The translations under genes were made by a program, and so were the position numbers. A DNA stretch of 64,000 nt from a virus: the IMG/VR virus record IMGVR_UViG_3300021256_000065, one strand, 5' to 3'. The notes beneath the pieces were generated by a model, which had not been told where the DNA came from, ran no database searches, and worked only from the letters and a program-made list of their open reading frames with translations. Position 1 is the stretch's first letter. Every line of letters starts with the position of its first letter. This document shows positions 1-49,100 of this stretch, piece by piece.

Positions 1-1745
1 ATATAAAGAACCCCTGTGCCTATTCTATTAAGACTAGTATTAAACACTACATCTTCTGTTCTGTTATACGCCCACCCTATATTTAGAAATTCATCTTGTA
101 TTTCTTCAATAAATTTGTTGTGATATTCACTGGGTTTTTGCTTTTCATCATATACATCCGATGCTATTGATTTAAATTCATTAACCACAGATGGATGAAT
201 AGTAACGGTAGATTGGCTACGCATTATTTCATATTTTGGATTACTATTACTTATATATTCGTATCTTCCATGATACTCACGAACATAAAACAATCCTATT
301 TGCGTACAACCGTCTGGTATTGTTATAGATACATATTGGAGCTTTCCAAAACCACTTATATCTGTTGTTGGCTCCTCAATCGGCTCTAAGTCATACTCTG
401 TTACATATTCAGATGAAAGATTTACTCTACCAGGAGAATCATTTCCGTTACCATCATACATTCCGATAATTGCTGAGCTATATTGGTCAGATAATGATGT
501 CTTTTTTATAGTAAACAAACCAAAATCATATAAATTAACAATGTCTCCTGCATTAACCGGAATTAAATCACTAATTGCATAATATGTATTTCGTAACGAT
601 TCTAACGGATTTGGAGTAACATCAACTAGACCTCCATTTCCCCAATAATAATTTTGAATATTTTCGTCATCGTTGCCAACATATATTGTTCTTGTATTGT
701 TTGAAATATAAATAGCATTTGCACCAATGTTTTCTCTTGCCTGAAACTTGTTTTCATCCGTTAAAGTTTGTGCAGTATTATATCTAACTGCCCCGGTTAT
801 AGTATCCGATGGGACAACCATGCCATCACTTCCAACAATAAGTGCTTTCCCTGCATTTTCTACGCCCTGTTGTTTATCAATTTTCCCGTTTCTTGCTACC
901 GTATCTTTTGCCGTTAATACATCAACTGTTTCATGACTTATTACCGTCATTTTTTCCAGTTTTGGCTCAAACACCTTATTAATCGTAAGTCCTTGAGCAA
1001 CTGTGATATGGATTTTATAGGTTGTTGTTTCCGGTACATCAAAAACAGCACCTTCTCCGATATCTCTAAAAAGCGCACCTCCGCCAGATGCATATCTGAT
1101 TGTAAGACTATATCCATCAGATGCGGCTCCACCTGTCGGGCATCCAGTAAGCCTGTATTTTTCTCCGGCAGTAAGCGGAATTGTCAACTCAGCCGAAGAT
1201 GACCTTATTCCAAAAATGATGCCTGTGGTATGAGTATTTGTTCCGACTGCAGAAATTGTTCCGTCATTGTTTTGAGTAAATACAACACCATGGTTCGTCC
1301 AACTACCTTCGCCAAGATTAAATTCTACTGGAGTATACTCATAAATATCTTTTGTTTCTGTATCTACAACTTCGGATATCTGTTCTAAACGTTCATTTAG
1401 TTCACTGAGTTCATCCCCGGTTTTCTTCGCATCTGCTGCCGCGCCCTCCGTTGTTAAACTTGAATCTACTATTACAGCACTTCCAACAGGAGTAACATAA
1501 GTATTCAGCCAATTAGTCACATCAGTGCTAATTTCATCTCTTAAATATTGCGCTAACGCTTCATCATCAATTTTTTCATTTAACTGTGCTTGCACAGTTC
1601 CTTTAGACATATCTATATTACCTAATATATCTACTAGATTGTGAGAATCATCCCATAAAATATACTCAGCTAATGTACTTATTGGTATCTCATCTGAATA
1701 AGTACCATCATCATACTTAATTCGAATAGCTGTTAATTTATTCAT
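1..1745 (-). CDS. Tail fibre / receptor-binding protein. 5' end is at 1745; the 3' end lies beyond the window start.
   Basis: The minus-strand frame is open from 1745 to 1 with no TAA, TGA or TAG. The ATG at 1743-1745 follows an AAAGGAGAA RBS. The N-terminus MNKLTAIRIKYDDGTYSDEIPISTLAEYILWDD...AAADAKKTGDELSELNERLEQI is paralogous to the N-terminus of gene 5554..8604. It is absent from the ORF track because it has no in-window stop. Confidence 0.55.
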   Translation of the reverse strand, partial: MNKLTAIRIKYDDGTYSDEIPISTLAEYILWDDSHNLVDILGNIDMSKGTVQAQLNEKIDDEALAQYLRDEISTDVTNWLNTYVTPVGSAVIVDSSLTTEGAAADAKKTGDELSELNERLEQISEVVDTETKDIYEYTPVEFNLGEGSWTNHGVVFTQNNDGTISAVGTNTHTTGIIFGIRSSSAELTIPLTAGEKYRLTGCPTGGAASDGYSLTIRYASGGGALFRDIGEGAVFDVPETTTYKIHITVAQGLTINKVFEPKLEKMTVISHETVDVLTAKDTVARNGKIDKQQGVENAGKALIVGSDGMVVPSDTITGAVRYNTAQTLTDENKFQARENIGANAIYISNNTRTIYVGNDDENIQNYYWGNGGLVDVTPNPLESLRNTYYAISDLIPVNAGDIVNLYDFGLFTIKKTSLSDQYSSAIIGMYDGNGNDSPGRVNLSSEYVTEYDLEPIEEPTTDISGFGKLQYVSITIPDGCTQIGLFYVREYHGRYEYISNSNPKYEIMRSQSTVTIHPSVVNEFKSIASDVYDEKQKPSEYHNKFIEEIQDEFLNIGWAYNRTEDVVFNTSLNRIGTGVLY

Positions 1746-2230
1746 TGATTTCTCCTTTCTAATTTATGCTATTTAAATAATCTAATATATTCATGATTAA
1801 CACACTAACATGCGGTTTTAGTCCTTCCATTTTGAAACTATGGATTTTTTTCACAATATTGTGTGTATTGTTCAATGTCATCTAATATTTGTTCAAAATA
1901 ATCTTTACTGTGACCCACATTAGAATATAACTCATCTGAGAATCTTAAAATGCGGGTTCTTGCGGTTGTTGCTTTATCCTACTAAATAGATGCTTTTAAT
2001 TTATCTATTTTTTCATTGGTTTCTGCAACAGCTTTTAAAATATCTTTTGTAATATCTTTTTTCTAATCATTTCTTTTTATAATAAATTGTATAAAGGCAA
2101 AAATGCCGCCGCTCCCGATTAGGAGAGCAAGAATGTTGAGGATTGATATTTGCAAATATTGATCACCTCCATTAGGGCAGCCTTAAGGCTGCCCTAACAA
2201 CTTTGTTGCTATTTTATGCGGTTTAAAATA

Positions 2231-5200: not shown

Positions 5201-5557
5201 ATATAAATAGTTAGCATTATTTTCTATAAAAGGATTAATATATTTAAATTGAGCATCTTCATTAAAAATGGCTTCAGTCCATTTTCCTTGATGCTCTTCA
5301 AAAGCATTTTCTATAGCTTCATAGGATAACGCACCAGATGAACGCAAATTACGATACATAGTAGCTAATTCATCAGGGAACGCCGCCCTTATATTTTTCC
5401 AAATAACCGAGTCTTGCCCATTAAATATAGGCGCTCCGCCTTGCTGATGATCAATATCTTCTAACCTATAGTCAAAAACTAATTGACCATCATTGTTAAT
5501 TCCGATTGCTGTATCCATATCATACGGCAACCAGACCACTTTTTTCTTTACACTCAT
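2231..5557 (-). CDS. Tail-associated adhesin-like protein with LRR-like repeats and Listeria-Bacteroides (InlB B-repeat-like) repeats. Read through 3 in-frame TAG codons.
   Basis: ORF-track fragments 4955..5557, 4226..4954, 2651..4006 and 2231..2599 are all in one frame. They are joined by TAG at 4955-4957, 4226-4228 and 2651-2653. I translated 4007-4225 and found no stop. The real stop is TAA at 2231-2233. The ATG at 5555-5557 overlaps the TGA of the upstream gene (ATGA). Repeats such as ATYSGSTPTKAQDAQYTYSFAGWSK and NTATYTGTTPTNADQTKFLGWSN match the GYxFxGW pattern of List_Bact_rpt. The alternative that TAG-ATG at 4954/4955 is a true gene boundary is not excluded. Confidence 0.5.
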
Positions 5558-8500
5558 ATAGTAACCTCCGTGCCCATGAAGGATGGAAATGCGTTCTTTG
5601 CTCTGGAGTCAACCATTAAGAACAATTCAGTAAACAAATAATAAAATAATGTCGATTGAAGTTCCATATATTCTCCAGCTTCTGCGCGGAATTTTGCAAG
5701 TCTATATTCAGCAGTATCTTTAGTATATGTTACTCCATCATAAGTAACAGATGCAGGTAAATTAGCATTTGTTGCTTGAGTTGTGTCAGTACTAACCGCC
5801 CATTCAGCAAAAGAAGCAAGTTGTTCTGTATCAACATATGGGGGATCAGTATCAGGATAACGAGCCTCAAAATCTGATTGCCAAGCTGTACCAGAGAAAT
5901 CTGCGCTTTGCCATAACGCACGACCAGGAGCATTGTTTAAAGTCTCCCAAGACTCATCATCGCCGCTTAAACCAAACACATCTTCTGTAGATTTATCATT
6001 ATTAAAATTATATTTACCTAAGAAAGTAGTTTCTCCTGCTGAAGTATTATTCCAAAAGATTATCATAGGAAATCCTTCAATCCCTTGTCTTACCTTACTA
6101 TTTTCTACCTGCGCGGGAGTCTTGTATGGACAGGCCGCATTATATAAATTAACAAGTTCAACATTGTTTGCGCCTTCTGATGAAGCAAAGTCAGCTTTCA
6201 TACAGAAAGTCTTTACTGGAATACTATTAGCACTCATAGCATATTTAGATTCTTGCGTACCATTCTGCATCCTAAATCCGCCATTAAACTTCATTTTATA
6301 GTTTTTACGAGGATAATACTGTGAAGATGTACCTTGAACATCAATTTGACAATCTTCAAAAGTAAAACTCTTAGAAGGAGACATTGGATTAACAAAAGAA
6401 CCACTACAAGTTTTCTTATCTCCTTTTGATTGAGGAAGCTCTGGACAAGAAATAATCATATATGGCAATTCACTTGGTAAATTTGAAATTACAATATTAC
6501 CATATTCATCAAATACATTATTTCTAACATATCTGTTAAGCATTAATCCACCATCTTGTGTATCAGCAATCCAGTTATTTACAACCTGGAAACGGGTTAA
6601 GTCATTATCATAAATACGAATATTATAAATATCAATAGTACAATCATTAGAACCAATACTAATATTTACTGGTGTCTGTTGTGAAAAGTCATCATCCGCA
6701 GGATACTGAACAGCACCAGAAACAATACCATTAATATAAATTAAAAGCATACGATGTTCAGTTCTTTTTTCACACACAAAAGCAATCCTTACATGTTCAT
6801 CTTCTTTATATTGAGTACCTATTTCTGACTGCTCAGATTTAAGATATGCTTTTTGCGCGGTGACTGAAAATCCTCTGTTTCCGCTCATACAAGACAACAC
6901 AACAGAATCATAATCAAGTACATTTTTAGTAGCAAACTAAAACTCGATAGTCTTACCAGTTGTTCTAAAGTCTTGAGCAAATGGCTTATATGGAACAGTT
7001 ACTCGCGCATCGCCAGATACACGAAGTACAGTAACACCATCCGCATCTTTTTGCCATCCATCAGATGAGAAATTAAAGTCCGTAAGTGTCGCAGATATAT
7101 TATTATACGACCAAGTTTCAGGATGTTCCTCTTGATTACTCCTTCCTTGTGAAGTTAGATGAAGTACAAGATTCTCTGTTTCAGCTTCGACATCTATTTG
7201 AGATTCTATAATATTCAAAGTTATTGTTTTAGATTTTGTTCTTGATCCAGTTCCACCTTCAATACGAATTGTTAATGTGCCTGCATTATTAGCTCGATAT
7301 GAATAAACCTGCTCTGTTCTATCGACTGTCTGAGTTGATACAAGAGTATTATTTATATATATCTTAGCTTCTGTTGTAAGCGCAGTCGGATCGTATATTG
7401 TAAATGGGATTGGAATTGTTGCATATTGATTTTCACTTGTTTTATCAAAAGAGCTTATAATAATAATATTTTCATTTCCTTCTTCAAGGCAAATAAATTC
7501 ATAATATAATTCATTTGATCTTACCAGTTCTCCATTAACTTCTGCATCAAAATATACTCTTAAACTATGCGAACCATGACTTTGTGCAGGGATAGAATAA
7601 GAAACCTGTCTACCAGAAACAGTTGTTGATTGAGTTGGTAAAACAGTTCCATCCAATATAAAATGAACTGTTTTAGTAACTGCACCAACAGGTGTATAAT
7701 TAAATTGTATTAATCCAGTAAAAGGTGCGGTTGTCACAAAAGAACTGCTAATTGTTAATGCCACAACAGTAACACTATAATTAATAGATCTCATTTGCCC
7801 ATATATATCTGAAACTTGAACTTTTACAGTATTAGATCCATTTGATAAATATTCAGAAACATCAACAGTAACATTTCCTTGAGAAATTTCTCTCGAAGTT
7901 TTAAAAACATTATTTACTAAAATTCTTAAATTACCATTACCAGTTGCAAGATCATCTTCAATAGAAGTCCAGTTAAAACTGATCTAACAAGGTGCTCCTG
8001 CGGAAATTGTTTTAGATAGCCAACCTGAGGTATTTGTAACGGTAAGGACTGCAGAGGTTTCACTACCTCCTCCTCCACCGCCACCTCCGCCAGAAAATGG
8101 GCCCAGCGGACCTACAACAATTTCACCATCAGATACCATATACAAAAATCCATCTTCTACATACGCGTCATCAATCTTACTTGTTAAAGAAACGCCTAAA
8201 TTATTTAATGAATTTTGTAATTCTTGAATTTCTGCGTTACTTGACTATATAGCATCACCTGTTGCTTTTGCATCTGCGGCCGCCCCTGATATATTTAAGG
8301 ACGGATCTATGATTACTAAATCTCCGCTAATTGGATTTATATTAGTATCTAACCAATCTGTAACCTCATCAGCAATTAAATTAGCAACATAATATCTTAA
8401 CTGTTCTATATCAATTTTCTCTGTAAAAAGAGTATCTAACTGATCCTGAACAGAACCTTTCGTATTTATATCAATTTCGCCAAGGACATCTACTAATGTA

Positions 8501-8604
8501 TTTTTCTTATTCCATTTTACATACTTAGATAAAATACTTATTGGAATCTATTTAGAATAAGTTCCATCTTTATATTTTATCTTTATGGTTGATAAAGTTT
8601 CCAT
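5554..8604 (-). CDS. Large tail protein (fibre or baseplate-associated), ~1016 codons, read through 4 in-frame TAG codons.
   Basis: ATG at 8602-8604. In-frame TAG at 8548-8550, two further TAGs in the N-terminal ~300 codons, and TAG at 6937-6939. Terminates with TGA at 5554-5556. Fragments 6937..7794 and 5554..6900 share this frame. Contains a poly-Gly linker (GPLGPFSGGGGGGGGGS). The N-terminal ~110 aa are paralogous to gene 1..1745. Confidence 0.5.
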
Positions 8605-8621: not shown

Positions 8622-8936
8622 TTAAAAATTACTTAGTTTGTTAAAAACTTTATTTGTTATATAAACAATCTCTTCTCCATAAGTGGAGATTATATCTGCT
8701 ATAATTTCCTACTGTTCAACAGTAAGAGATACATTATACGAAAACATTGCAGCGTGCGTGATTTCATGACATAACACCTTTTTTAAAAGGTCACCGGTCA
8801 GCGTCTCATTTATATATATAGTTCTTGTCAAGTTATCACACGCACCTATAGAATATTCCCCAGACAACCTTCTAAGAAGAGGGAAGTCTGGGGAAACAAA
8901 CGCAAGTTTCCAATAGACGTTGTTAATAAGAAACAT
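8622..8936 (-). CDS. Small HExxH zinc-metallopeptidase-like protein (IrrE/ImmA-like motif).
   Basis: ATG at 8934-8936 overlaps the TAA of the upstream gene. Contains motif CHEITHAAM. TAG at 8709-8711 is followed by 28 more sense codons to TAA at 8622-8624. Ending at the TAG instead cannot be excluded. Confidence 0.35.
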
Positions 8937-11772: not shown

Positions 11773-12264
11773 ATGAAAATACTATCATTAGATTTATCTA
11801 CTAAATCATCTGGTTGGTGCATAGGATAGGATGGAAAATTTGAAAAATCTGGATGCGTTGCGGCGGCCTCTAAAAATGTAAATGCACGAATTATTAAAAT
11901 TCGTGATGAAATATCTAAAATAATTAAAGAAAATAATATAGATAAAATTGTTATGTAGTAGGTGCGGCCTGAGTACAATTCTCATACTAATAAAGTATTA
12001 ATGTGGTTACAGGCTGCGATTGTTCTCGCCGCTTATGAAATTAATCCAAAAATTTAGTGTGAATTTATTGGAGCTACAGAATGGCGGGCCGCATTAAAAA
12101 TAAAACAGGGACGCGGCATAAAGAGAGAAATGCTCAAACCGCAAGATATAAAATACGTAGAAGATAAATACTCAATTAAAGTCCAAAATGATGACTAGGC
12201 TGATGCAATTTGTATATTTGACGCCTATTGGGAAAAGAATGATAATGAAATTAATTGGGAATAA
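11773..12264 (+). CDS. ruvC: RuvC-like Holliday junction resolvase with 5 in-frame TAG codons.
   Basis: N-terminus MKILSLDLSTKSSGW resembles the RuvC ILGIDPG box. C-terminal DD-TAG-ADAICIF resembles the RuvC DAADALAIA box. Tandem TAG-TAG sits in IVM**VRPEY, aligning with the catalytic IEQ region of E. coli RuvC. Preceded by a consensus TTGACA-17-TATAAT promoter and a GAAAGGAGA RBS. TAA at 12262-12264. Confidence 0.6.
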
Positions 12265-12306: not shown

Positions 12307-12720
12307 TTATTCTTTATTACATAAAATAGATTGTAATTGCATTATTTCTCTTGGTGTGAGGATATCATATTTATCATCACTGTAATCAAATATAGAAATA
12401 TCATCTAGTGTAGATAATTTAATTTCTACTTCTATATTTAATAATTCATTAATTTCTGCAATATAATCACTCATATGTTCATCATCAACTTGGGGGATTC
12501 CTGTTGCAGTATAAATATATTCACCTTTGTCATTTTTAATAATAAAATCTTTGTAAGTTTCAATAATTTTATTCAACATTTTGGTATAACAATCTACATC
12601 ACCTTGAATATTTAATGCATTTTTAACAATTAAATATGAGATTTTTTGTGGTAATTTTTTTGTAGAATATTTATTTAATATTTGCATCATGCTAAGTAAT
12701 TCTATATTTTTAATTTTCAT
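12307..12720 (-). CDS. Hypothetical protein.
   Basis: ATG at 12718-12720 after AGAGGA. TAA at 12307-12309. No TAG. Ends at a bidirectional terminator. Confidence 0.4.
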   Translation of the reverse strand: MKIKNIELLSMMQILNKYSTKKLPQKISYLIVKNALNIQGDVDCYTKMLNKIIETYKDFIIKNDKGEYIYTATGIPQVDDEHMSDYIAEINELLNIEVEIKLSTLDDISIFDYSDDKYDILTPREIMQLQSILCNKE

Positions 12721-15700
12721 ATACAATATCCTCTAATTCTTTTATTCTTTTTTGTTGTTTTTGTAATACTGCAATAATAGGAGCAATAAATTGATCATAT
12801 GACAAACCCCATGATAATAAATTATCATCAACCTATTCACCAAAATAAGGTTCAACTTCTTCATCAGGATCATTACTTTTATAACTTGCAGCTACTACTG
12901 ATAAATTTTGATTTAAATTTTTACACACTTTTGCAACATCTTGTGCAATAAATCCCATACGAGTTCTTCGATGATCTCCCTTTTTCCACATAAAAGAAAT
13001 TGGCTATAAAGACATTATAAAATCTTCTGCAAAATCAATCTATCCTAAAATATCTTTTAATTTTCTATCTGAGGATGTATCTACATTTAAACAAAAAACA
13101 TTATTAAATCTATAACCGTCCTGAGTATCTCTTCCTAAATCTACTACTGCTGTATCATGTGTAGGGACTAATCGTGGACTTTGTCCAGATATTCTAATTT
13201 TAGTTTTTTGTGTATTAAATTCTATATGACCAGAGTATTTATCAGGTTTGTTCATTACTCCAGTACTTAATCTTACATCTCCATATGCATCCTATATTTC
13301 AATATCATGTTCCGTTTGATCGTCATTATATCCAACATATAAATTTAATCCTAAATAACTAGTTAGCTGAGTAGCGCCACCAGATCCTTTTAAATTTAAA
13401 CTACTCTTTGGTGTATATAATTGAATATTACCTGTTGAAGGACGTCCTGGCGAATCAGAACCAACCATTACATCCAAATTACCATTTACCCATATCGTTG
13501 AAGACTGATCGCAAAACATCCCCCATTTATGGCTAGAAAAACTCCAAGGAGTTGAATTAGAATAATCAAGTGTGGGAGGCACATATCCAAGATAAATTCC
13601 TTGTGTGCTACTTGACGTAGAGGTTTGATCATTTCTTATTCCTATGTAAGATCCATGATTTGTAATTGCATAAAATGAATTTTTATATAAATCTGGTGTA
13701 CTAGAAACATACAATTTATCAGGTCTTATTTCAACTAAAGAGCCATATGTTAATCCTCCATATGATTGAGGTGGAGTCGTAGTTAAATCTGGATTTGGAT
13801 TATAATCTTCAAAACTAAAACCACCTATATGACCAGTGCCATCTGCATTAAGAGAAAAAGCATTATTACTTGACTTTATTCCATTATTTAATAAATCTAA
13901 TCCACCAATTTTACCTGCAGAAGCATAAATAGTTCCATATATAATTGCATTACTAGCAGTTAATAATCCATTACTAGAAACAACAAAAGTGGTTAATGAA
14001 GAATCTTCTTCCCAATATGTAGTATTTGGCGGCTTGTTACTTTGCGCAGAAGTATGCGCTAAAATACATTTATAAATTTTTCCATTGTCACGAACAATAT
14101 CATCTATAGCATATATGGCATCTTCCTACCAAAGCGGCAATGGCCCACCAACCACGCCATTTTCTTTAATGTACCCGCTCAGTTCATTTTGTAAGCCATC
14201 AACTTTTTCAATAGGAATAGTTGCATTATTTCCCAAATTTAAAGTAGTTGCAGTAATAACACCAGATATATTTGCTTCTTCGGCATGTAATATTCCTTGT
14301 GAATTAACTGAGAACTTACCATTTCCAAATCTGATTTCAGGAGCAGTTAAATTAATTAATAATCCAGCTCCAGCCTATCCTGATGATGTATAATCAATAG
14401 GTAATCCATCCTATCCATAATTAGTAGATTCCCAAAAATTATGACTATAAATCATAGCTTTTTGTGCGATTGGATCTATAATAATTTGACCATTATCTGC
14501 TTTACCAAAAATAGCAGAGCCATTCTAACTATTTAAAAAGAATGTGCGGGCGCCACTATTATACCCAAATAAACCAGACTATGGCTCGCTTTTATCTGGA
14601 GACCGTACCTATCCCATAAGCACGCCAGTAAAACTATTATCATTTTCTTTCCGTCCTGCGCCGACCTGTGGACTAAGAATAAAACCGCCTTCATCATCAA
14701 TTTGAACACTATTGCCATCCCATTCATTTATATGAGATAAGCCATATTTATTTAATAAAAAATGAATAGGAACATTTATTTTACCAATTATTACATTATT
14801 CTGTTTATATATACAACAAACTGCATTATTAACACATAATCCATTATATTTTGATTTTGGACGAATTATACATTGATTTTTTTCATATCCATTATTTGGA
14901 AGAATCTCTAATAAAAGAGAATTAATTGCCGCTCCATCTTTAGATAAATAATTTCCAATAACAGATGGTTCATAAGAAATTGCATGGATACCAGAAACCA
15001 GTGAAATATCTTCCCAAGTGTTATCAATAGATTCTTCACAAATAAATTCAAAAGGACTGGCATCGTCATACTGCGGTGAAATACCATCTGAAGTATATAT
15101 TACATACCTAAATCCAGTATAATCTTTTAATTTTACTCTATATTTTTCATCACTAGTCCAAGCTGTTACTATAGGAATTGTACCATAATAAGTTTTGCTT
15201 TCCCAATCAATACTACATTTAATAATATTTGCTAAAGGTGTATTTAAATTAGAATCTAAATGATCTCCAGTATATTTAATTTGCCCATTATTTGCATTTA
15301 CTATTTCAAAAGCAGATGCATCAGAGTATGTATTATTATATTTATTTTTTAACACACTCCAAATGACACTTGAAGGCTGGGTTAAATTGTCTTGAGCAGT
15401 ATCTGTCATAGAATTACCTTCCCATACCAATTCTCCACTATGCCATAATTGTGCCTTAAAAAATTTATAACTATTATTAATAAGAAGTTCAGTTTCTGCG
15501 GCGGAAGTTCCTAATCCATAGTTTAAAATATACTTATTTCCAGCTTTAGTAATCATTGGAGCCAATGGAGGAACGCTCATTGTTGTATTTGGAACTAATT
15601 TTACTATATATTCAGTTCCATTTGTACCAGGCTCTCCCTGCTTAGCAAAAGTAAAGTTGGTTTCCGCAGATAAACTTAACCCTTTATATCTTACTGTTAA

Positions 15701-17755
15701 TTTTATTTGATTTTTTTGTTTTTGAATATAATATCTTTGTGAAATATTATAAAACAAAGTTGGTTTATCATCATAATATCTATAATTTTCATCTTCATCA
15801 AAGTCTAATCCATTTTCCTATGAATCGACTAACATAGTATTTGTTTTAGGAAATTCCCATTTAATTCTGCAATTATTTATATTTTCCAAAATATCTTCCT
15901 AAATAGGCTGACCTAAATTGTCATATATTGCAAAACTAAGCGGCAAAATTTCTTGCGGCGAGTCCAGACTCTTACTATTTGGAGCAACGCCATTTTCATT
16001 ATATTGAAAAACTTGTGTACCATTATTAATAACAAGAGAATAAAGATCTTCTCCACTTAAAGTATTTTCTAAAGTTATTGATGGAGTACCTAATAAAATA
16101 CCATTCTCATTAACGACAGTACATTTAAAGGTTCTACTATCTGTAATATCATTGATTTGTACATTATAGATTTTATTGCCTTCTACTCTTTGAATAGAAT
16201 TAAAAGCTTTAACATTATTCTATAATGTAGTTAAATTCTCTTTCTACGCATTTTCAAACTTAGTTCCTGAAGCAATCGCATCCTAAAGATTCGTTAATGC
16301 AGTAACCGCTGCAGTATATGCAGTATTTTCTGATGTAGTTTCTGGCAATTCTTCAAGCACCTAATTGTCAGATACATACGCCCAATAGTAATGATAGTTC
16401 TGAGGCTATGTTCCATTAACCTTACAAGTTAAAGTTGGATGTCCAATGTCATAATAAAATTTTGTACCATTACTTGATTCTATTGTCAACTATGGTGTTT
16501 CTGCACATAAATTCTTAATATTAACCTATTTAGATGCGGTGTTTCCATTATAAACAACTACAACTTTAATTTTATTGTCACTTACGGTTGCCGCGGTGAA
16601 ACTCATTTTATATATATTCCCCGCAGGTACCCATTCTATAATAGCATTAGGATCATTAGGAACAGTAGGATCGGCATCAATAATATTACTTTGATTTAAA
16701 CACTACCAACCTCTCCCTAAATGTTTATTATAATATCTATTATTAGCCATGACTTGATTATTTTCTCTTCCCCAATAGAAAGAGAAATTTTTATCAATCG
16801 CTACTTCTTTTCCTTTAATTCTAACTTTTGCGGTAATTGTTTTATAATCAGCTGTTGTAGAATCATCTTTAAAAATAAGCCCTTCTGGGACAGAAAGAGA
16901 AATAGAAAGTCCATTTAATTCAGATTCAGATAATTTTGAAGTTCCAAAAAACTTCAAATTAGTAATTTCTATATCCCCTGTTTCTAATCGTCTATCTGTA
17001 ATAACTCCATTAGCACCAGGGAATTCCTTATTGAAAATCTCTATAGACTCAATACGAATAAAATTCTATCCATCGATTTTAAAATATTGTGATTGTTCTG
17101 TCCCATATGCCAATCTATATGGGTTATCTTTCATGTTATCTTCATTGATTGTATATGAACGAATAACCTCTTGGTTAGAAGTATTATCTAAAAATCTTAA
17201 ATTATAAGTGATACCATAATGACCTCTAGTCTGTCTTTCAGGCGCGATAGAGGTTTTAAAGGTTGCGGCAACCTTAATAGAAGAAGATCGTCTTATATAA
17301 TAAGCTAAGGCCAGATCATCTAATGAAATATCACTAGGTTCTCCATATTGATAAATTGTATATTTATAATCTCTATTTAATGTATTTAAATAAAATTTGT
17401 CAATATCATTAACATTAATGCAATTAGTACCATTAATATCATAAACTGCCTAATTGTCTAACTAACTAATATAACTTACCCCAGACCGCGTAGTTGAACC
17501 TAAGATAGTCTTATCTTTTGACATATCATTGCCTGGAACAAGAATATTAACATAAGAGCCATTAGTATATGTTGTATCTATATTATTAGAATAAGCATAT
17601 ATAATAGCATCTTGATAGCGGCATCTATATTTTCCGATAGACGCGTCCTCACATGAAATAATCTGCGCTTGGATTGTTGTATTATAATTAGCTTTTTCTA
17701 CTTTTGAATTTGCTAATAATTCAATAGCATCCAAAATCGTCTAATTTACATTCAT
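12710..17755 (-). CDS. Tail fibre protein (~1680 codons) with a C-terminal intramolecular chaperone / peptidase S74 auto-processing domain. About 25 in-frame TAG codons.
   Basis: ATG at 17753-17755 after AAGGAGGAAATTATAC. Fragments 17462..17734, 16703..16957, 14609..15757, 13292..13714 and 13040..13255 are all in one frame and all end in TAG. I hand-translated 13715-14608 and 12710-13040 and found only TAG. Stop is TAA at 12710-12712. The C-terminus TSSDRKLKDILG*IDFAEDF...MGFIAQDVAKV...LSYDQFIAPIIAVLQKQQKRIKELEDI matches the endosialidase-type chaperone domain (SDxxLKxNI ... GxIAQE ... coiled-coil tail). Confidence 0.65.
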
Positions 17756-18060: not shown

Positions 18061-21000
18061 TTAATTTCTTAATGCTCTTTGAATTGCCATATTCGCAAGT
18101 TCATAGAATGCATCTTCAATTTCTTTTCTAGTATTAACATTTGGAAATACTGCTTCAATATTCACAGTTTGTTCAATACTTTCACCATTAGTATTATCAA
18201 ATAAATTACTAAAACCGCCTTTGATATTATTTGCTCTTGAGTATAAAGAACCTTCTAATGAAGTCTTTAATTCCTCTAAGATAATAGCCATAGTGCTAAC
18301 TCGCTCATTTAATCTATTTATTCGTTCATCACTTGATAATGAATCCATTGTAGCATCTTCAAAGATTTGCATCATTCCAGATAATTGTGAACCATACACT
18401 GTACTATCGGCTTGATCTAATCCATTAAGAACCTGATCTTTTGCGGCATCCCAAGTACCAAGTCCAATAGATTTATCATCTATTTTATTAAAATCATTTG
18501 TATCATTTGCGGATTTCAGATTTGTTTGCTGAAGGAGATCATGTATAGTACCACTTGTAATCATTGCATTTTTAGTAACTTCTTTATAAGCTTCTGCAAG
18601 AGAATGAATATAATCTCTTAAACTAGCAACTTTTGTCATTTCTTTATCCATGTTTGTCATAAGAGCATCATTAGCAGTAATTAATTTACTAGTCTATTCA
18701 GCTAAAGCACTAACACCTTCTTTTGTTTTTTCAAAATCAGTTCCCGCGCTTTCCGCAGTTTCTTTTACATCATTTTTATATTCTTTAGATGCTTCACCAA
18801 CTTTTTCAAAAGCCTACTGACAAGTTGGAACAAAACCGCCCTCTTTAGTCATAGCATCCATCATTGCCTGAATACCACTATCCCAAGTAGGAACTAAATC
18901 TTTCATTATTAAGTCTTTTTCTTCAATGGATAAATTCTTATAATGTTTTGCATCTTCATTATTAAGTAACGCATAATCTTGTAATGCTGAATCAGTTAAA
19001 TTACCTCTAATAACTTCATTCTAAGCAAGTTTACCATTAATATATTCTGCATACTGCTGTTGTAATAATGCAGCCTATCTAGCTTGATCTTCCTAACTCT
19101 TTGACATATCAGACATAATTGCTTTATACTAAGATTGAAAATCTTTCCAAGCCTGTAATGCATCAGATAAATTAGAATTATATCTTTCTTTATCAAAGTT
19201 ATATAAATCATTATTAAGCTAAGCTAATCTTCGCTGAGTCTATAAAATATCATCATCATCCGCAATATATTCATATGAATAGTTGCCTTGAGAATCTCTC
19301 TTTAATCTCATAGTAGTTTTTGCAGCTTGTGCATCTTCTAATGCAATTCTGGCTTGTTCTAATTCCAACAGCTTCTGAGCACGCTCGACATCATACTCAG
19401 TTAACTTATCTTTATTTTCAAGATTAGTTAATTGTTCATCCATCAATCGTTTTAATGCCTGTTGATTTTTTAAATCTTTAGTATCATTAATAGCCTTATT
19501 AAACTATCCTCTTAAATCTTGAAGCGCAAAAGCAGCATTAATAGTATCATAATACTCGTCTGCATTTTTATTCAACAGATCCCATTCTTTTTCAACAAAA
19601 TCAGAGCCTTTTCCGTCACTAATTCTTCTATCTAACTCATCAAAGATTTTATTAATAGAATTAATGTATTTATCTTGAATAGTTTGAATAGATTGTCCAA
19701 TCATACTATTTAAATTGCCAATAGTCTAACGATAATGTTGTTCAAACTTTTCTGCGGCATTGGTATCTCCTGCGTCAACGGCGGCCTGCCATCTTTCTTT
19801 CCACCACGCCGCCTGTTGCCTTAAGAAATCTATTTGCTTATTAGAATTTTCATTAAGCTAAGTATAATATTTATCCATCGCCTCATAGTTTTGATCACCA
19901 TATAACAATGATAATAAATCCATATCATGAGTTAACAACTATTCTACAAAACCATAATTCTACATTTGTTTATTAAATTGATTATCAATTTCATCAATAG
20001 TTGAAAGATATGCCTAATCAACTTCATCAATAGAAGATAACATCCCTTCTAACTGATCTTGTAATGATGCTAAATCAGTTTTTAAATTTTCTAAGGCTTT
20101 TTCTTTATCCTTACCATAAATGTCAGAACTTTCACCTCTATTAATTTTTTCAATTTCCGCTTGAGTTTTGATTAATTGATTTGTTATTGTTTCAATCGAG
20201 CCTGCTGTATCACCGTTACCAAAATATGAGAAGAAATCTTTACTACTCTTTGCGGCGTCCGCAAATATTTTATCAAAGTTGCTATCTTTAACAACATCAG
20301 CTTTATCTATTACATTACGATAAAAATCATTCCAATCTCTTTGAGCTGCGCTCATATCAAGATGAACATCAATTGTTGTTCTAAATCTCTAAACATTTTT
20401 TTCAATTCTTTCTTGCTCTGCTTCATTAATATCATCTTTTGAGTCTTCAATCGCTTCTCTTAACTCGTCATAATCTTTTATTTTATCTTTTAAATTCTAT
20501 AGACTATCACTAGCTTTATTAATTTGCTTATCAAGTTTCTATAATCTTTCTTTTAATTTATCTTTTTTATTTTTATTTGTTTCTTTATTATATTCTTTAA
20601 CTAATTTATTATATTTATCAGTTTTCTTATTAACCTAATCTTGCTGTTTACCAACTATTTTCATATAATTGGTAATATTACCATAAGCATCAAAAGTTAC
20701 TCCAAGCCCTTTTAATGCTTTTTGCTGAGAAGCTAAATCTTTCTCTTGAAGTTTTAATTTTTCCTCAAGTTTTTTCTTCTGCTCTTCTAACAGTTTTGAT
20801 TGCTATCTTAAATTATCTAAAAGATCTTTACCATATAAATGGTCTTGCTTCTTTTGTGCGCGGTCAAGGTTTCGATTGATTTTTTCAATTTGGATATTTA
20901 TATCATGATAAATATCTCTTTCATCTTCAATCTTCTTTTTCTTATCTTTTTTTCCTTTATCAGGTTTTGCAGTAGATCCTTTACTGCCGCCTTTGCCACC

Positions 21001-24000
21001 TTTACCGCCTCTTCCGCCGCTGCCACCAGAACCAGCACGACGAGCAGAGCCTGCAGAGCCGCCACCATTTGAAGCTTGTTTAAACTTAAAACCGCCGCCA
21101 GAAGATTTATGAGCAGATGTCACTTTTAAAGAAAAAGCAGAATTTTCTTTTGTATCAGTAGTTGTAGTTGTTCTTGGAATATATTCACTATCATAAACAG
21201 TATACTAAATAGGAGCTGTACGAACTTCCATATCCTAACCGCGACCAGAAATAATAGGAACCTAACCTACTCTTGTCTAAGGAATAAGTTCACTATCAAA
21301 TCCAGTGATAGTTTTATTCTAAGTTCCCTGATTTTTTTGCTCAACAACCTCAGCATCAATACCCATAGAAGCCAAATAATCAGTTGCTTGCTCGGCAGTC
21401 ATATGGGCAGCATTTACTAAATCTCCTAATTCTTGTAAAAAATTATCTTGATTTAAATCTGCGCCAATTTCAAGGGTTTGAAAGTTCATAAGATCTAATG
21501 AGTTTTGAACAGTATCTAATGATGACATAAAGTCTTCATACATACCTTCATCCCATTTAATGTGACCAATGATATCCTGCTGCGCGGCAATCATTAATCT
21601 ATCATATGCCTAAGTATCACCATCAATGGCGGCTTTCATATCATTTAAATTATCTGTATTAGATAAAAAGTCTTCTGATAAAGAGCCTCCATCTAAATCA
21701 AGTAAATCAGCATAAGCCTCTCTCATTTCTGACATTGCTTGTACTTGATCTTGGATAGAACCACTTTCTAATGCTTTTGTCCAATTCTTATAACTTTTTA
21801 CAACATTTTGACAAGCATCATCAAATCTTAATATTTCTTCAGAAAGTTTTTCAGCACCTTTTCTATCTGTCTATAAACCATTATGTAATTCTTCTGTTTC
21901 ATCAGCAACGTCTTGAATATGATCTGCCAAATTTTCCCACTAATCAGTATCAACATCTGCATCTAATTTTGTTTCGCTGATTTGCTATTGTAAGGCTAAT
22001 CTTTCTTTTCCTTTTTCTATAAGCTAAGTCTAAATTTGATTTAATTCTTCATCAGCTTCTATCTACGCTTTTTTAGCAGATGCAGCATCTGATTCAGCTT
22101 GCATTACTTCGCCTTGACTAAATTGTCCTTCATTTTCAACTTTAAAATTTGCTTTTGCATAATCCTATTGACTTTGTTTTTTAATCTCTTCTAATTCAGT
22201 TTTTCTATTCTATAACTATTGAATATGTTTTTCATTCTCCGCCAACAATAGTTCTTTTGTTACTTCTAATTCAGACTATTTTGCAGCAATTATTTGATTA
22301 AGAACGTCAAGGTATTCTTTTGAATTTACTCCATTCTAAGCTGCTTCATTTAAAATAGAATATTCTTTCCCAACTGTAAATAAAGCAGACATTTGTTCAT
22401 CGCTTAGCTCTCCACCTTTAGCTAAAGTATCTCTTGCAGATGTTAGTGTAGAAACTTCTTTTTTATCAGTTTGAAAATTATCAAAAGAAGAACTAGTTGA
22501 TGAAGCTCTTTCAACCTATTTTTTAAAATCTTCTGCATTAAAAGTACCATTTTTTAATGCTTCAGAAATTTTATTAATATTATCAATAATCCATTGATAA
22601 TCTGTGTCCACTCCAAGAGAAGCGAATAACTCATTTAAAGTTTGTAAATGTCCTAATGCCTAAGAATCTTTAACAGCGGCTTGCGCATTTTTATAATCTT
22701 TTAATTTATCCTTTGCACTATCTACTGCTTTTTCTAATTTACCAAGATTTTCACTTTCTTTATATAAATTTAAAGCAGCCTATTTAGTCTAATTGGAATT
22801 AAAAGCTAAATTATTTGCTTTTGCAAACTATTCTAATTTATCTTCTGTTAAATTAAGTTGCTTTACTTCCTATCCAAAAATATCATTCCATAAAGCTTGA
22901 TATTCAGCTGGACTAATTTTAGATTTTAACTACTATAATTTTTCAAAACTAGTAGCAAGGATTGATAACCCTTCTGCTCTTTGCATAGAATCAGAAGTTG
23001 TTAAAACTGCGTCTTCAAAATCTTTTAATAATTGTTCAGTATCTTGAAGTTTAGAAGGATCGACCTAACCCTCATATAAATTAGATAATAAATTAGTTTT
23101 TTCTTTATATGATAAATCTTTTCCAGATTGAACTTTTTGAATAGCGGAAGAAACTTTATCAAAATTTTTAATAATATTATTAACATTATTATCTTGAGCG
23201 TCTTGAGCAAGAAAATTTTGAATCCATTGTTTCGCTTCTTCAAGAGTTTTAAACTATGGTTTAAATTTATTAATTTGCTAATTTATTTTATTTAATTGTT
23301 CTTCAGAAAAATTCTAAGTTAACCAATTTTGTAAAAAATTTTTAGCATGAGTATCTGTATATCCAGAAATACCTTCTTCAATAGAATCATTTAAAGTTGA
23401 AGCAATTTCTTTTCCCAAAGAAGTTCCTGCAGTAAAGACTTTAAAAACTTCTCGAACTCCATCTTTAAATACAAAATTTAAATTATCTAATCCATAAATA
23501 GATTTAATTAAATTAATTATCATATCTTTTTGCTCTGGATTATTTAACATCTATTGAATCTATGGATTATTAAGCCAAATATTATTTATAGACTATATAA
23601 TTGCATCTGAAATCTGTTTGACACTTTGATCATTATTAGCAAAAATTTCTTCAATATCTTTAATACTTTCATTTTCAGCACTTTTTATTATCTAACCGCT
23701 TTGGACTAAATTATCATAAATCAATTTAATTTTATCTACCATTGATTGATAAACCTAATCCACAGGGATGTCATCGGTTGAGCTAGTAATAGTATCTATT
23801 AATAACATTAATAAATCTTTTTGATTCCAACCAACTTTAATAAATTCTTCTTGTAAATTATCATATAATTCTCTATTTACATCATCAATGCTAAAAGCTC
23901 TTAAAAGCGCATCGGCATCTTCTTCAGTGTAATAAGTTTTTTCTTCTTGCTTTTTTGTTGCATCATCTAAAGCTTGTTTCTTCTCATCAACTGCTGCTTG

Positions 24001-47954: not shown

Positions 47955-48848
47955 ATGTTATTTATAATATTAAGTTTTATTTTTTTAATATTTGGTTTAA
48001 TTCTTTTTTACAAAGCCAATCAAATAAAAATTAATAAAAATGAATAGCAAGAAGAATATAAACAAATATTAAAAAATCAAATTACTCAATTAAAAATTGA
48101 GATTGATGCTTTAAAGCAATCTCAATTTAAAAAACAAAAAGAAATTGATTAGTAGTTAATACAATGGCAGGCTAATCGTAAAAAAGAAATTGAAGTATAT
48201 ATAGAAAGTCAAAAACAATTAGCCGATCAAACTGTAAATACAGTATATGAATCTGCCCAAAAGCAAATTTCAGATATTAATAATGATATTCAAAGTACTC
48301 GTAATATAGCATTGCAAGAAAAAGAATAGATACAAACTGAAATTAATAAATTAAAAGCCTCATTAAATGCGGGTGTTGAAGCTCGTCTCCGCGAACAATA
48401 GAAAAAAGATAAAATTAATTTTTATAAACTTTCTATTTCTGAAGCAGATTTAGCTGATGTAAAAATGCTATAGAATTTAAAATCTTCTTTTCATAAACCT
48501 GTTGTTTTAAGTAAACTTATATGGACTCAATATTTCCAAAAACAAATGACAGAATTATGTGATAGAATTTTAGGAAAAAAGACTGTTTGTGGCATTTATA
48601 AAATTACTAATTTATTAACAGAACAATGTTATATTGGTCAAAGTGTTAATATTAGTGATAGATGGAAGCAACATTGTAAATGCGGTTTAGGTATTGAAGC
48701 ATCCGCAACAAATGTTTTATATAATGCCATGCAAAAAAATGGAGTATGGAATTTTAGTTTTGAATTATTAGAATAGTGTTCAAAAGATCAATTAAATGAA
48801 AAAGAAAGATTTTGGATATAGATGTATCAAAGTAATAAATTTGGTTTA
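47955..48848 (+). CDS. Membrane-anchored coiled-coil protein with a C-terminal GIY-YIG (T5orf172-like) nuclease domain. 8 in-frame TAG.
   Basis: N-terminal TM (MLFIILSFIFLIFGLILFY). Coiled coil. GIYKITNLLTEQCYIGQSVNISDRWKQH is GIY-YIG motif A. FELLE-TAG-CSKDQLNEKERFWI-TAG parallels the I-TevI ILEEIPYEKDLIIERENFWI region. TAA at 48846-48848. Confidence 0.55.
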
Positions 48849-48870
48849 AATACTACAAAGGGGAATTTAT

Positions 48871-49100
48871 AATGATTAAAGTTTTTACTTTAAATAAAAA
48901 TAATAAAATTGAATTAACTAAATAGGAATTACAAAAGTTATTAGATGAATCTTATTGGGAGGGCAGAAATTCAGTTTATATCTCACCCTCTTGGACATAT
49001 GTTTCTCCAACTAAATGGACTTATGATACCACAACAGAACCATTATCAACAAACGCAGCAACCGCAACAATTATAGTAGGAGATAATAAAAATGAAATTT
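48871..49100 (+). CDS. Small hypothetical protein with 1 TAG.
   Basis: ATG at 48871. Ends with TGA, overlapping the start of the next gene. Confidence 0.2.

Follow-up and report, generated by a model that had tools for sequence, protein, structure and literature searches.

To our knowledge, stop codon recoding in phages occurs only as TAG to Gln, TGA to Trp and TGA to Gly. Reassignment of TAG to Gln has been described for Lak megaphages, crAss-like phages and phAss-1 ('Phassvirus') (PMC8346664, PMC9523058, PMC10607447; Borges et al., 10.1101/2021.08.26.457843), and among phages with a code unlike that of their host only TAG-to-Gln and TGA-to-Trp changes were reported by Borges et al. (10.1101/2021.08.26.457843). 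Occasional alignments of TAG with Glu in Lak phages were explained as GAG-to-TAG mutations under a TAG=Gln code, while among 180 phage suppressor tRNAs surveyed elsewhere the predicted isotypes were Gln, Trp, Ile and Tyr, and none was Glu. Our full-text searches of the literature retrieved reassignment of UAG/UAA to Glu in ciliates only, and none in phages. The peritrich ciliate nuclear code (NCBI table 30) assigns both UAA and UAG to Glu. Furthermore, tRNA-Glu and tRNA-Gln have both given rise to amber suppressors in the laboratory (E. coli supE and engineered tRNA-Glu(CUA)): a tRNA with anticodon CUC (Glu) or CUG (Gln) needs only one substitution, at position 36, to read UAG, and in E. coli, GlnRS tends to charge the suppressors that have U35.

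The 64,000-nucleotide stretch of viral DNA analysed here (IMGVR_UViG_3300021256_000065; hereafter the window) belongs to a phage that resembles code 15 phages in carrying TAG in late/structural genes, in the presence of a phage tRNA(CUA) in its relatives, in its TAA/TGA stops and, presumably, in a standard-code host. It is of the same genome size class as phAss-1, whose tape measure protein comprises 3,149 aa, and the two phages probably belong to the same broad family. In code 15 phages TAG specifies Gln, whereas TAG in the window behaves as if it encoded Glu, and the tRNA(CUA) of the relatives does not resemble tRNA-Gln. The assignment of UAG would thus match that of the peritrich code, which is, however, eukaryotic, nuclear and genome-wide and includes UAA, whereas the window phage is a virus of bacteria in which UAG alone is reassigned, in a stage-restricted manner, and UAA is the main stop. 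The position-36 change is shared with the laboratory amber suppressors, although the Glu signal observed here implies that the context provided by the host or the tRNA prevents Gln charging or transamidation. Based on the sequence comparisons presented below, we estimate a probability of roughly 85% that TAG is read as glutamate in the lineage of the window phage, i.e. as a codon synonymous with the regular Glu codons. If so, TAG-to-Glu would add a new code to the natural ones known from bacterial translation systems.

The window phage and its relatives

The phage is a roughly 134-kb SPbeta/EF1/phAss-like siphovirus from the sheep or cow rumen. IMG/VR contig 3300021399_000007 (133.9 kb) exhibits 97–99% protein identity to the window, many further relatives were identified, and contigs from a sheep-rumen series encode proteins that are 100% identical to those of the window. 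Among isolates, Enterococcus EF1/VRE9-type and SPbeta-type phages come closest, at 31–42% identity. Segments of the window measuring 14 kb and 9 kb had no Megablast match among GenBank phages; in tblastn searches of a phage collection, RuvC and PolIII matched distant EF1/SPbeta-type phages alone, and GyrA matched bacterial-like sequences alone (<41% identity).

Proteins encoded by the window include GyrA/B, an NAD-dependent ligase, PolIII alpha, DnaB, a primase, a Thg1-like enzyme and an RNA ligase. The latter two are located in the early block, the Thg1-like tRNA-His guanylyltransferase at 29886-30713 (plus strand; PHROG 4717, E=2e-87) and the RNA ligase at 35395-36666 (plus strand; PHROG 968, E=7e-59), which suggests tRNA repair or maturation alongside recoding.

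Among the 348 loci of the wider phage family (L009–L347), 159 were classed as TAG-readthrough, 58 as TGA-readthrough and 131 as standard or early-region. Sequence comparison indicates that standard-code, TGA-recoded, TAG=Gln and TAG=Glu lineages occur together in this one family, and sister lineages in which one codon carries differing meanings would offer a rare opportunity to study how genetic codes change. One locus classed as TAG-readthrough (L321; IMGVR_UViG_3300028805_000058, 146 kb) displays Trp at four conserved sites opposite TAG, so that TAG has a third meaning in this family or else the locus is misclassified.

TAG as a sense codon concentrated in late genes

TAG is a sense codon in the late genes of the window phage, as the first-pass annotation had assumed. 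Under the standard code, 54.0 kb is covered by ORFs of ≥100 aa, the longest being 837 aa; when TAG is read through, coverage rises to 72.1 kb and the longest ORF extends to 3,121 codons, 85 of them TAG. This ORF corresponds to the tape-measure-like protein (18061..27417, minus strand; 3118 codons), the frame of which contains no other stops, while a further 24 TAGs are present in the gene of a large tail protein (12710..17755, minus strand; 1681 codons). In the late block (minus strand, 1–28 kb) TAG represents 126 of 8,833 codons (1.43%), compared with 21 of 10,215 codons (0.21%) in the early/replication block on the plus strand above 28 kb, which is almost free of TAG between 28100 and 47900. 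Genes of the window phage end in TAA or TGA, TAA being the main stop. Two early ORFs, 37784-38326 and 38403-38675 (both plus strand), have a TAG 4 and 0 codons, respectively, ahead of their TAA, and the few TAGs near such 3′ ends are probably still stops in a tandem TAG...TAA arrangement. An ORF of 146 codons at 1742-2182 (minus strand) contains six TAGs and no ATG, and is 100% conserved, TAGs included, in locus L004.

That the in-frame TAGs are untranslated, as remnants of pseudogenes, as sequencing or assembly errors, or through RNA editing to GAG, is scarcely credible given the uninterrupted tape measure frame. Independent assemblies from different samples moreover have 121–124 TAG positions in common with the window, and both the restriction of TAG to late genes and the dedicated tRNA(CUA) genes described below argue against such explanations.

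Individual TAG sites and their counterparts

The analysis started from an in-frame TAG at 8548..8550 (minus strand; CTA on the plus strand), which is codon 19 of a tail-fibre-like late gene (5554..8604, minus strand; 1016 codons, four in-frame TAGs). The first-pass annotation had noted that TAG lies opposite acidic or amide residues in three comparisons, and had proposed Glu or Gln as the encoded residue, with Gln as the default. The first of these comparisons is borne out by the sequence: GTYSK-TAG-IPIS in the fibre gene corresponds to GTYSDEIPIS in a paralogous fibre gene, the TAG-free N-terminal part of which lies at 1..1745 (minus strand) and runs off the window, with TAG opposite E. A second paralogue position (GDELSE versus GDAI-TAG-SS) is likewise present. 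Since the relatives vary at codon 19 (D in three, TAG in two, P in two, E and K in one each), this site is uninformative on its own. In the gene for a small HExxH protein (8622..8936, minus strand), the TAG at codon 76 is opposite E in 22/22 of the sense codons of relatives.

In the GIY-YIG endonuclease-domain gene (47955..48872, plus strand; eight TAGs), the TAG at 48774-48776 (FELLE-TAG-CS) aligned with E63 of I-TevI and that at 48819-48821 (FWI-TAG) with K80 (HMMER, E=7e-7), in agreement with the correspondence proposed earlier. Taken alone, the three comparisons would be anecdotal; weight comes from the large-scale tabulations.

TAG at the catalytic glutamate of a RuvC-like resolvase

The third comparison concerned a RuvC-like Holliday-junction resolvase gene (11773..12264, plus strand), in which TAG occurs in frame five times, as codons 19, 62, 63, 95 and 142 (11827-11829, 11956-11958, 11959-11961, 12055-12057 and 12196-12198, plus strand). 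The tandem TAG-TAG (IVM-TAG-TAG-V) that had been assigned to the catalytic Glu region is real and is located at 11956..11961, ~15 nt from the position first given for it (around 11940-11945). A RuvC family profile ('i-l-e-e-v') aligned to A-I-E66-Q67-V of E. coli RuvC (1HJR), a match that was the top one in the PDB even though it was weak (E=0.14), and that places the first TAG on catalytic Glu66, without the shift by one residue that had been considered earlier. The single RuvC-like sequence gave no match when searched against the PDB with phmmer. With its TAG positions rendered as X, the protein scored 16.4 bits against the Pfam RuvC model (cut-off 22.2), while many of its homologues (67–77% identity) have precomputed PF02075 or PF07066 matches.

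RuvC and phage RuvC-like resolvases (PF02075, PF07066) have as their common signature a D close to the N-terminus, an h-h-h-E motif and D-x-A-D. Of the catalytic acids (D7, E66, D138 and D141 in E. coli), D7 is found in the window gene within LSLDLS and D-x-A-D is present, whereas the E66 position is TAG; the complete catalytic set is thus obtained only if TAG encodes Glu. As a difference from these known resolvases, the window gene writes both the catalytic and a second family-invariant Glu codon as TAG, the latter in the N-D-D-x-A-D-A motif (12196..12198, plus strand).

Full-length database homologues of this protein were rejected as evidence for Gln, as TAG is written as Q in them by convention: P0001, the database copy of the window RuvC, shows Q at every TAG, including at the catalytic Glu. 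Because such Qs are a translation convention, loci were compared at the DNA level, using 69 distinct homologues. The catalytic column (the first codon of the tandem) was E in 40/40 relatives without TAG recoding, and E in 19 and TAG in 10 of the TAG-recoded sequences. For the second tandem codon the corresponding figures were 25 E, 7 K, 6 D and 2 Q versus 17 E and 11 TAG, and for the N-D-D-x-A-D-A column E in 39/40 versus 18 E and 9 TAG. TAG occupied 34% of the cells in E-invariant columns and ~0% of those elsewhere (Fisher p ~1e-21, the cells not being phylogenetically independent), and it was present in 0/29 sequences at the conserved Q column. In the TAG-bearing columns GAA/GAG occur, while CAA/CAG essentially never do.

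These observations bear on the reading of TAG as glutamine (genetic code 15), under which Glu alignments would reflect conservative E-to-Q replacement through GAG-to-TAG mutation. This is the sole TAG reassignment reported for phages, yet it would place Gln at the catalytic position of the resolvase, would leave unexplained why Gln codons are virtually missing from the columns in which TAG alternates with GAA/GAG, and would not account for the invariant Q column being free of TAG.

Tabulation of residues opposite TAG

When TAG sites of multiple genes were tabulated against relatives without TAG recoding, an acidic bias far beyond chance was observed. Opposite TAG, the standard-code relative L007 presented E at 14 sites, D at 12, K and S at 10 each and Q at 8. 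With an empirical substitution log-likelihood, comparison of the window with L007 and with two recoded relatives ranked E first in each case, ahead of Q by 11.5, 32.7 and 15.8, respectively. For the window alone (91 sites), E was the most frequent counterpart (23.1, followed by K with 11.2, D with 8.3 and Q with 5.7) and the best-scoring residue (log-likelihoods of -237 for E, -263 for K and -271 for Q). For the whole clade of the window, covering 1,226 sites in all genes compared with non-TAG relatives, the log-likelihood of E exceeded that of Q by 333.

Genes of the closest relative's contig that had not been used before showed the same pattern, with E at 17/20 conserved unique sites opposite TAG and Q at 0/20; the genes concerned include those for TerL, portal, tail tube and NrdG. 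At each of four sites in TerL, E was found in 39–46 relatives, and E was likewise present in 52/53 at a tail tube site and in 36/40 at the NP-x-TW site of NrdG, although such homologue-based counts cover related sequences and are not independent events. Decoding of TAG as Gln would convert these 17 conserved positions to Gln as well.

A comparable result was obtained from near-identical pairs with identical flanks. Among 44 exchanges of TAG at ≥95% identity, 34 involved GAA/GAG and 5 involved CAA/CAG; at 85–95% identity the corresponding figures were 333/449 and 33/449, so that near-identical genomes exchange TAG with Glu codons ~7–10 times more often than with Gln codons, contrary to what a Gln code would predict. 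The share of exchanges involving GAA equals its background codon usage, and the one-step neighbour GAG is not enriched, an observation that speaks against a simple Glu code and is compatible with a minor degree of ambiguous decoding. GAA was exchanged with TAG about four times as often as GAG even at ≥95% identity, although it is two mutations away; this excess may stem from a strong pressure towards A/T or from recombination among genomes that circulate together.

Several observations remain in favour of Gln, namely a few window sites opposite conserved Q (codons 98 and 1059 of the large tail protein and codon 2733 of the tape-measure-like protein) and a CAG fraction of 0.23 in late genes, slightly below the 0.29 of early genes. 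Amino acid composition and codon usage within the window were weak indicators and did not discriminate between the readings. On balance, a Gln meaning appears very improbable for the window lineage and may be regarded as largely refuted. The initial proposal is accordingly retained with respect to the acidic or amide residues opposite TAG, while the data favour Glu over its default of Gln.

Five window TAGs are positioned opposite a Lys that is conserved in 15–18 relatives: codon 351 of the tail protein and codons 2205, 2307, 2343 and 2638 of the tape-measure-like protein. The excess of conserved Lys opposite TAG exceeds that at true Glu codons, and these sites may represent AAG-to-TAG replacements or minor ambiguous decoding.

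A sister lineage in which TAG behaves as a Gln codon

The same pipeline returned the opposite result for a second TAG-recoded clade (L035, L036, L037, L062 and L064), in which the log-likelihood of E minus that of Q was -166 over 268 sites, indicative of Q. Further relatives of this type (L194, L205, L248 and L296) again gave Q. In near-identical pairs from the Q-type lineages, TAG was exchanged with CAA/CAG in 11/12 and 28/31 cases. By these sequence criteria the sister clade of the same family serves as a built-in positive control for the canonical code 15, and the fact that the same tests yield Q there is a further argument against a Gln meaning in the window lineage.

The suppressor tRNA(CUA)

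No tRNA and no Rfam match was detected in the 64 kb of the window, nor was any tRNA found within ±10 kb of the RuvC, tail, PolIII, tail tube and TerL genes in >300 loci of relatives. In the closest relative's contig, of which 91.4–101.7 kb was seen in part (L378 covers the homologous stretch), the only tRNA cluster seen adjoins a sigma-70-type gene. The relative with 97–99% identity to the window encodes a tRNA with anticodon CUA at L331:17996-18069 (Rfam tRNA, 64.7 bits), which adopts a canonical cloverleaf. The same cluster and the same tRNA(CUA) body, with another acceptor stem, were found at L378:13529-13602, on a 23-kb contig from the sheep-rumen series that also yielded the window-identical contigs. 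Pattern scans of genome collections for the arms of the suppressor gave 0 matches, and a metagenome scan in the tRNA search produced a single 2.7-kb contig that added nothing.

The tRNA(CUA) of the relatives is characterized by A73, a C1-G72 or G1·U72 pair, U11-A24, U35, A37 and U20a/U20b in the D loop. A73 and an enlarged D loop are likewise features of the tRNA-Glu genes of these phages, whereas their tRNA-Gln genes exhibit G73, a weak 1-72 pair and a short D loop. The nearest non-suppressor neighbour of tRNA(CUA) is tRNA-Glu(CUC), at 62% identity, and the suppressor of a more distant relative (L341/L342) possesses a 4-nt variable loop and U13·G22, which are typical of tRNA-Glu. The first-pass annotation had expected the family of the suppressor tRNA to distinguish the two residues; the tRNA(CUA) proved not to be tRNA-Gln-like, which counts against Gln.

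Identity of E. coli tRNA-Glu is determined by U34, U35, C36, A37, G1-C72, U2-A71, U11-A24, U13-G22:A46 and the absence of nt 47 (PMC9976931). Measured against this set, tRNA(CUA) retains U35, A37, U11-A24 and A46, and departs from it in having C34 and A36 rather than U34 and C36, G13·A22 rather than U13-G22, and no G1-C72/U2-A71. The variable loop comprises 5 nt in the L331/L378 type, which keeps nt 47, and 4 nt in the L341/L342 type. The full E. coli tRNA-Glu identity set is therefore not carried, and glutamylation of tRNA(CUA) is presumptive.

Bacterial GatCAB requires U1-A72 and refuses tRNA-Glu by means of an extra D-loop base (PMC2811023; PMC9976931). The features of a GatCAB substrate (U1-A72 and no supernumerary D-loop base) are absent from the tRNA(CUA) of the relatives, which also lacks the G73 of the tRNA-Gln genes, and both properties are difficult to reconcile with TAG encoding Gln.

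Proposed decoding of TAG as glutamate

In the model we favour, TAG, which makes up ~1.4% of late-gene codons (tape measure, tail, fibres, terminase, portal and resolvase), would specify Glu through a phage-encoded tRNA(CUA) whose cluster would lie outside the window. Host GluRS, possibly a non-discriminating enzyme that tolerates changes at position 36, is proposed to charge this tRNA with Glu. Host GatCAB would not convert the attached Glu into Gln, a prediction made because tRNA(CUA) is without U1-A72 and has the extra D-loop bases U20a/b. With TAG confined to late genes, translation of these genes would depend on prior expression of tRNA(CUA), a timing model that has already been proposed for TAG=Gln phages.

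Ambiguous decoding, in which TAG would yield mostly Glu with some Gln (through partial transamidation), Lys or another residue, is an unlikely alternative that draws on the conserved-Lys excess, the atypical identity set of tRNA(CUA) and a well-scoring UUA-anticodon tRNA in the same cluster, a candidate second decoder of UAA and UAG. An efficient reader of UAA would, however, also suppress the main stop of the phage, the Lys signal consists of five sites in two fast-evolving proteins, and the presence of TAG at catalytic and invariant Glu positions in a third of the sequences argues for Glu as the dominant product.

Returning to Glu as the meaning of TAG in the window lineage, we tentatively propose, as one possibility that falls somewhat short of even odds, that the rumen/gut siphovirus family of ~130–145-kb genomes has changed its code repeatedly, and that features of the suppressor tRNA alone set UAG to Glu or Gln. 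The 1-72 pair and the size of the D loop would then decide whether GatCAB amidates the Glu placed on the tRNA by a position-36-tolerant GluRS. Should this be correct, it would provide the first natural UAG-to-Glu code on bacterial ribosomes, and with it a natural experiment on the constraints that the indirect Gln pathway imposes on the reassignment of codons.

Application of table 15 by gene callers and databases would, if TAG encodes Glu, render ~1.5% of the residues of late proteins wrong, the catalytic Glu of RuvC included, to the detriment of structure prediction, active-site inference and proteomic searches. The presumed gain of Glu and avoidance of Gln by the phage tRNA(CUA) can be tested through the anticodon tolerance of GluRS and the GatCAB antideterminants, and tRNA(CUA) may serve as a natural Glu-inserting amber suppressor.

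Additional features of the tRNA clusters

A gene for a full, four-region sigma-70-family factor is located immediately upstream of the cluster containing the suppressor (L331:15158-16105; L378:10001-10915), and is 73–100% conserved over hundreds of relatives. The clusters also contain the aforementioned tRNA with anticodon TTA (L331:19362-19434 and L378:14893-14967; 51 bits with Rfam, G73), of the ochre type that could read both UAA and UAG. In L331 it is situated directly upstream of tRNA-Leu(TAA); its presence is odd given that TAA is the main stop of the phage.

Two tRNA-like genes of 98 nt with 8-nt anticodon loops (L286:4052-4149 and L300:4390-4487, minus strand) were rejected as amber suppressors. 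ARAGORN assigned the anticodons 'gaag' and 'aaag' to these genes, which adjoin tRNA-Leu(CAA) and may represent quadruplet-type tRNAs or tRNAs with an insertion.

A sub-threshold YrlA (Y-RNA-like) match was obtained over tRNA genes at L331:19727-19838 (30.5 bits versus a gathering score of 69), and a DUF2828-type ORF is present just downstream of the tRNA cluster at L378:19483-20915. At L331:20240-20537, a sequence resembling the 5′ half of a tRNA (gggggtcatagctcagttgggagagcgc...) is followed by the apparent start of a coding region, and the tRNAs of L378 and L380 are interrupted by PDDEXK_5 and HNH genes. Together, the half-tRNA and these genes suggest the presence of homing endonucleases or introns in the cluster.
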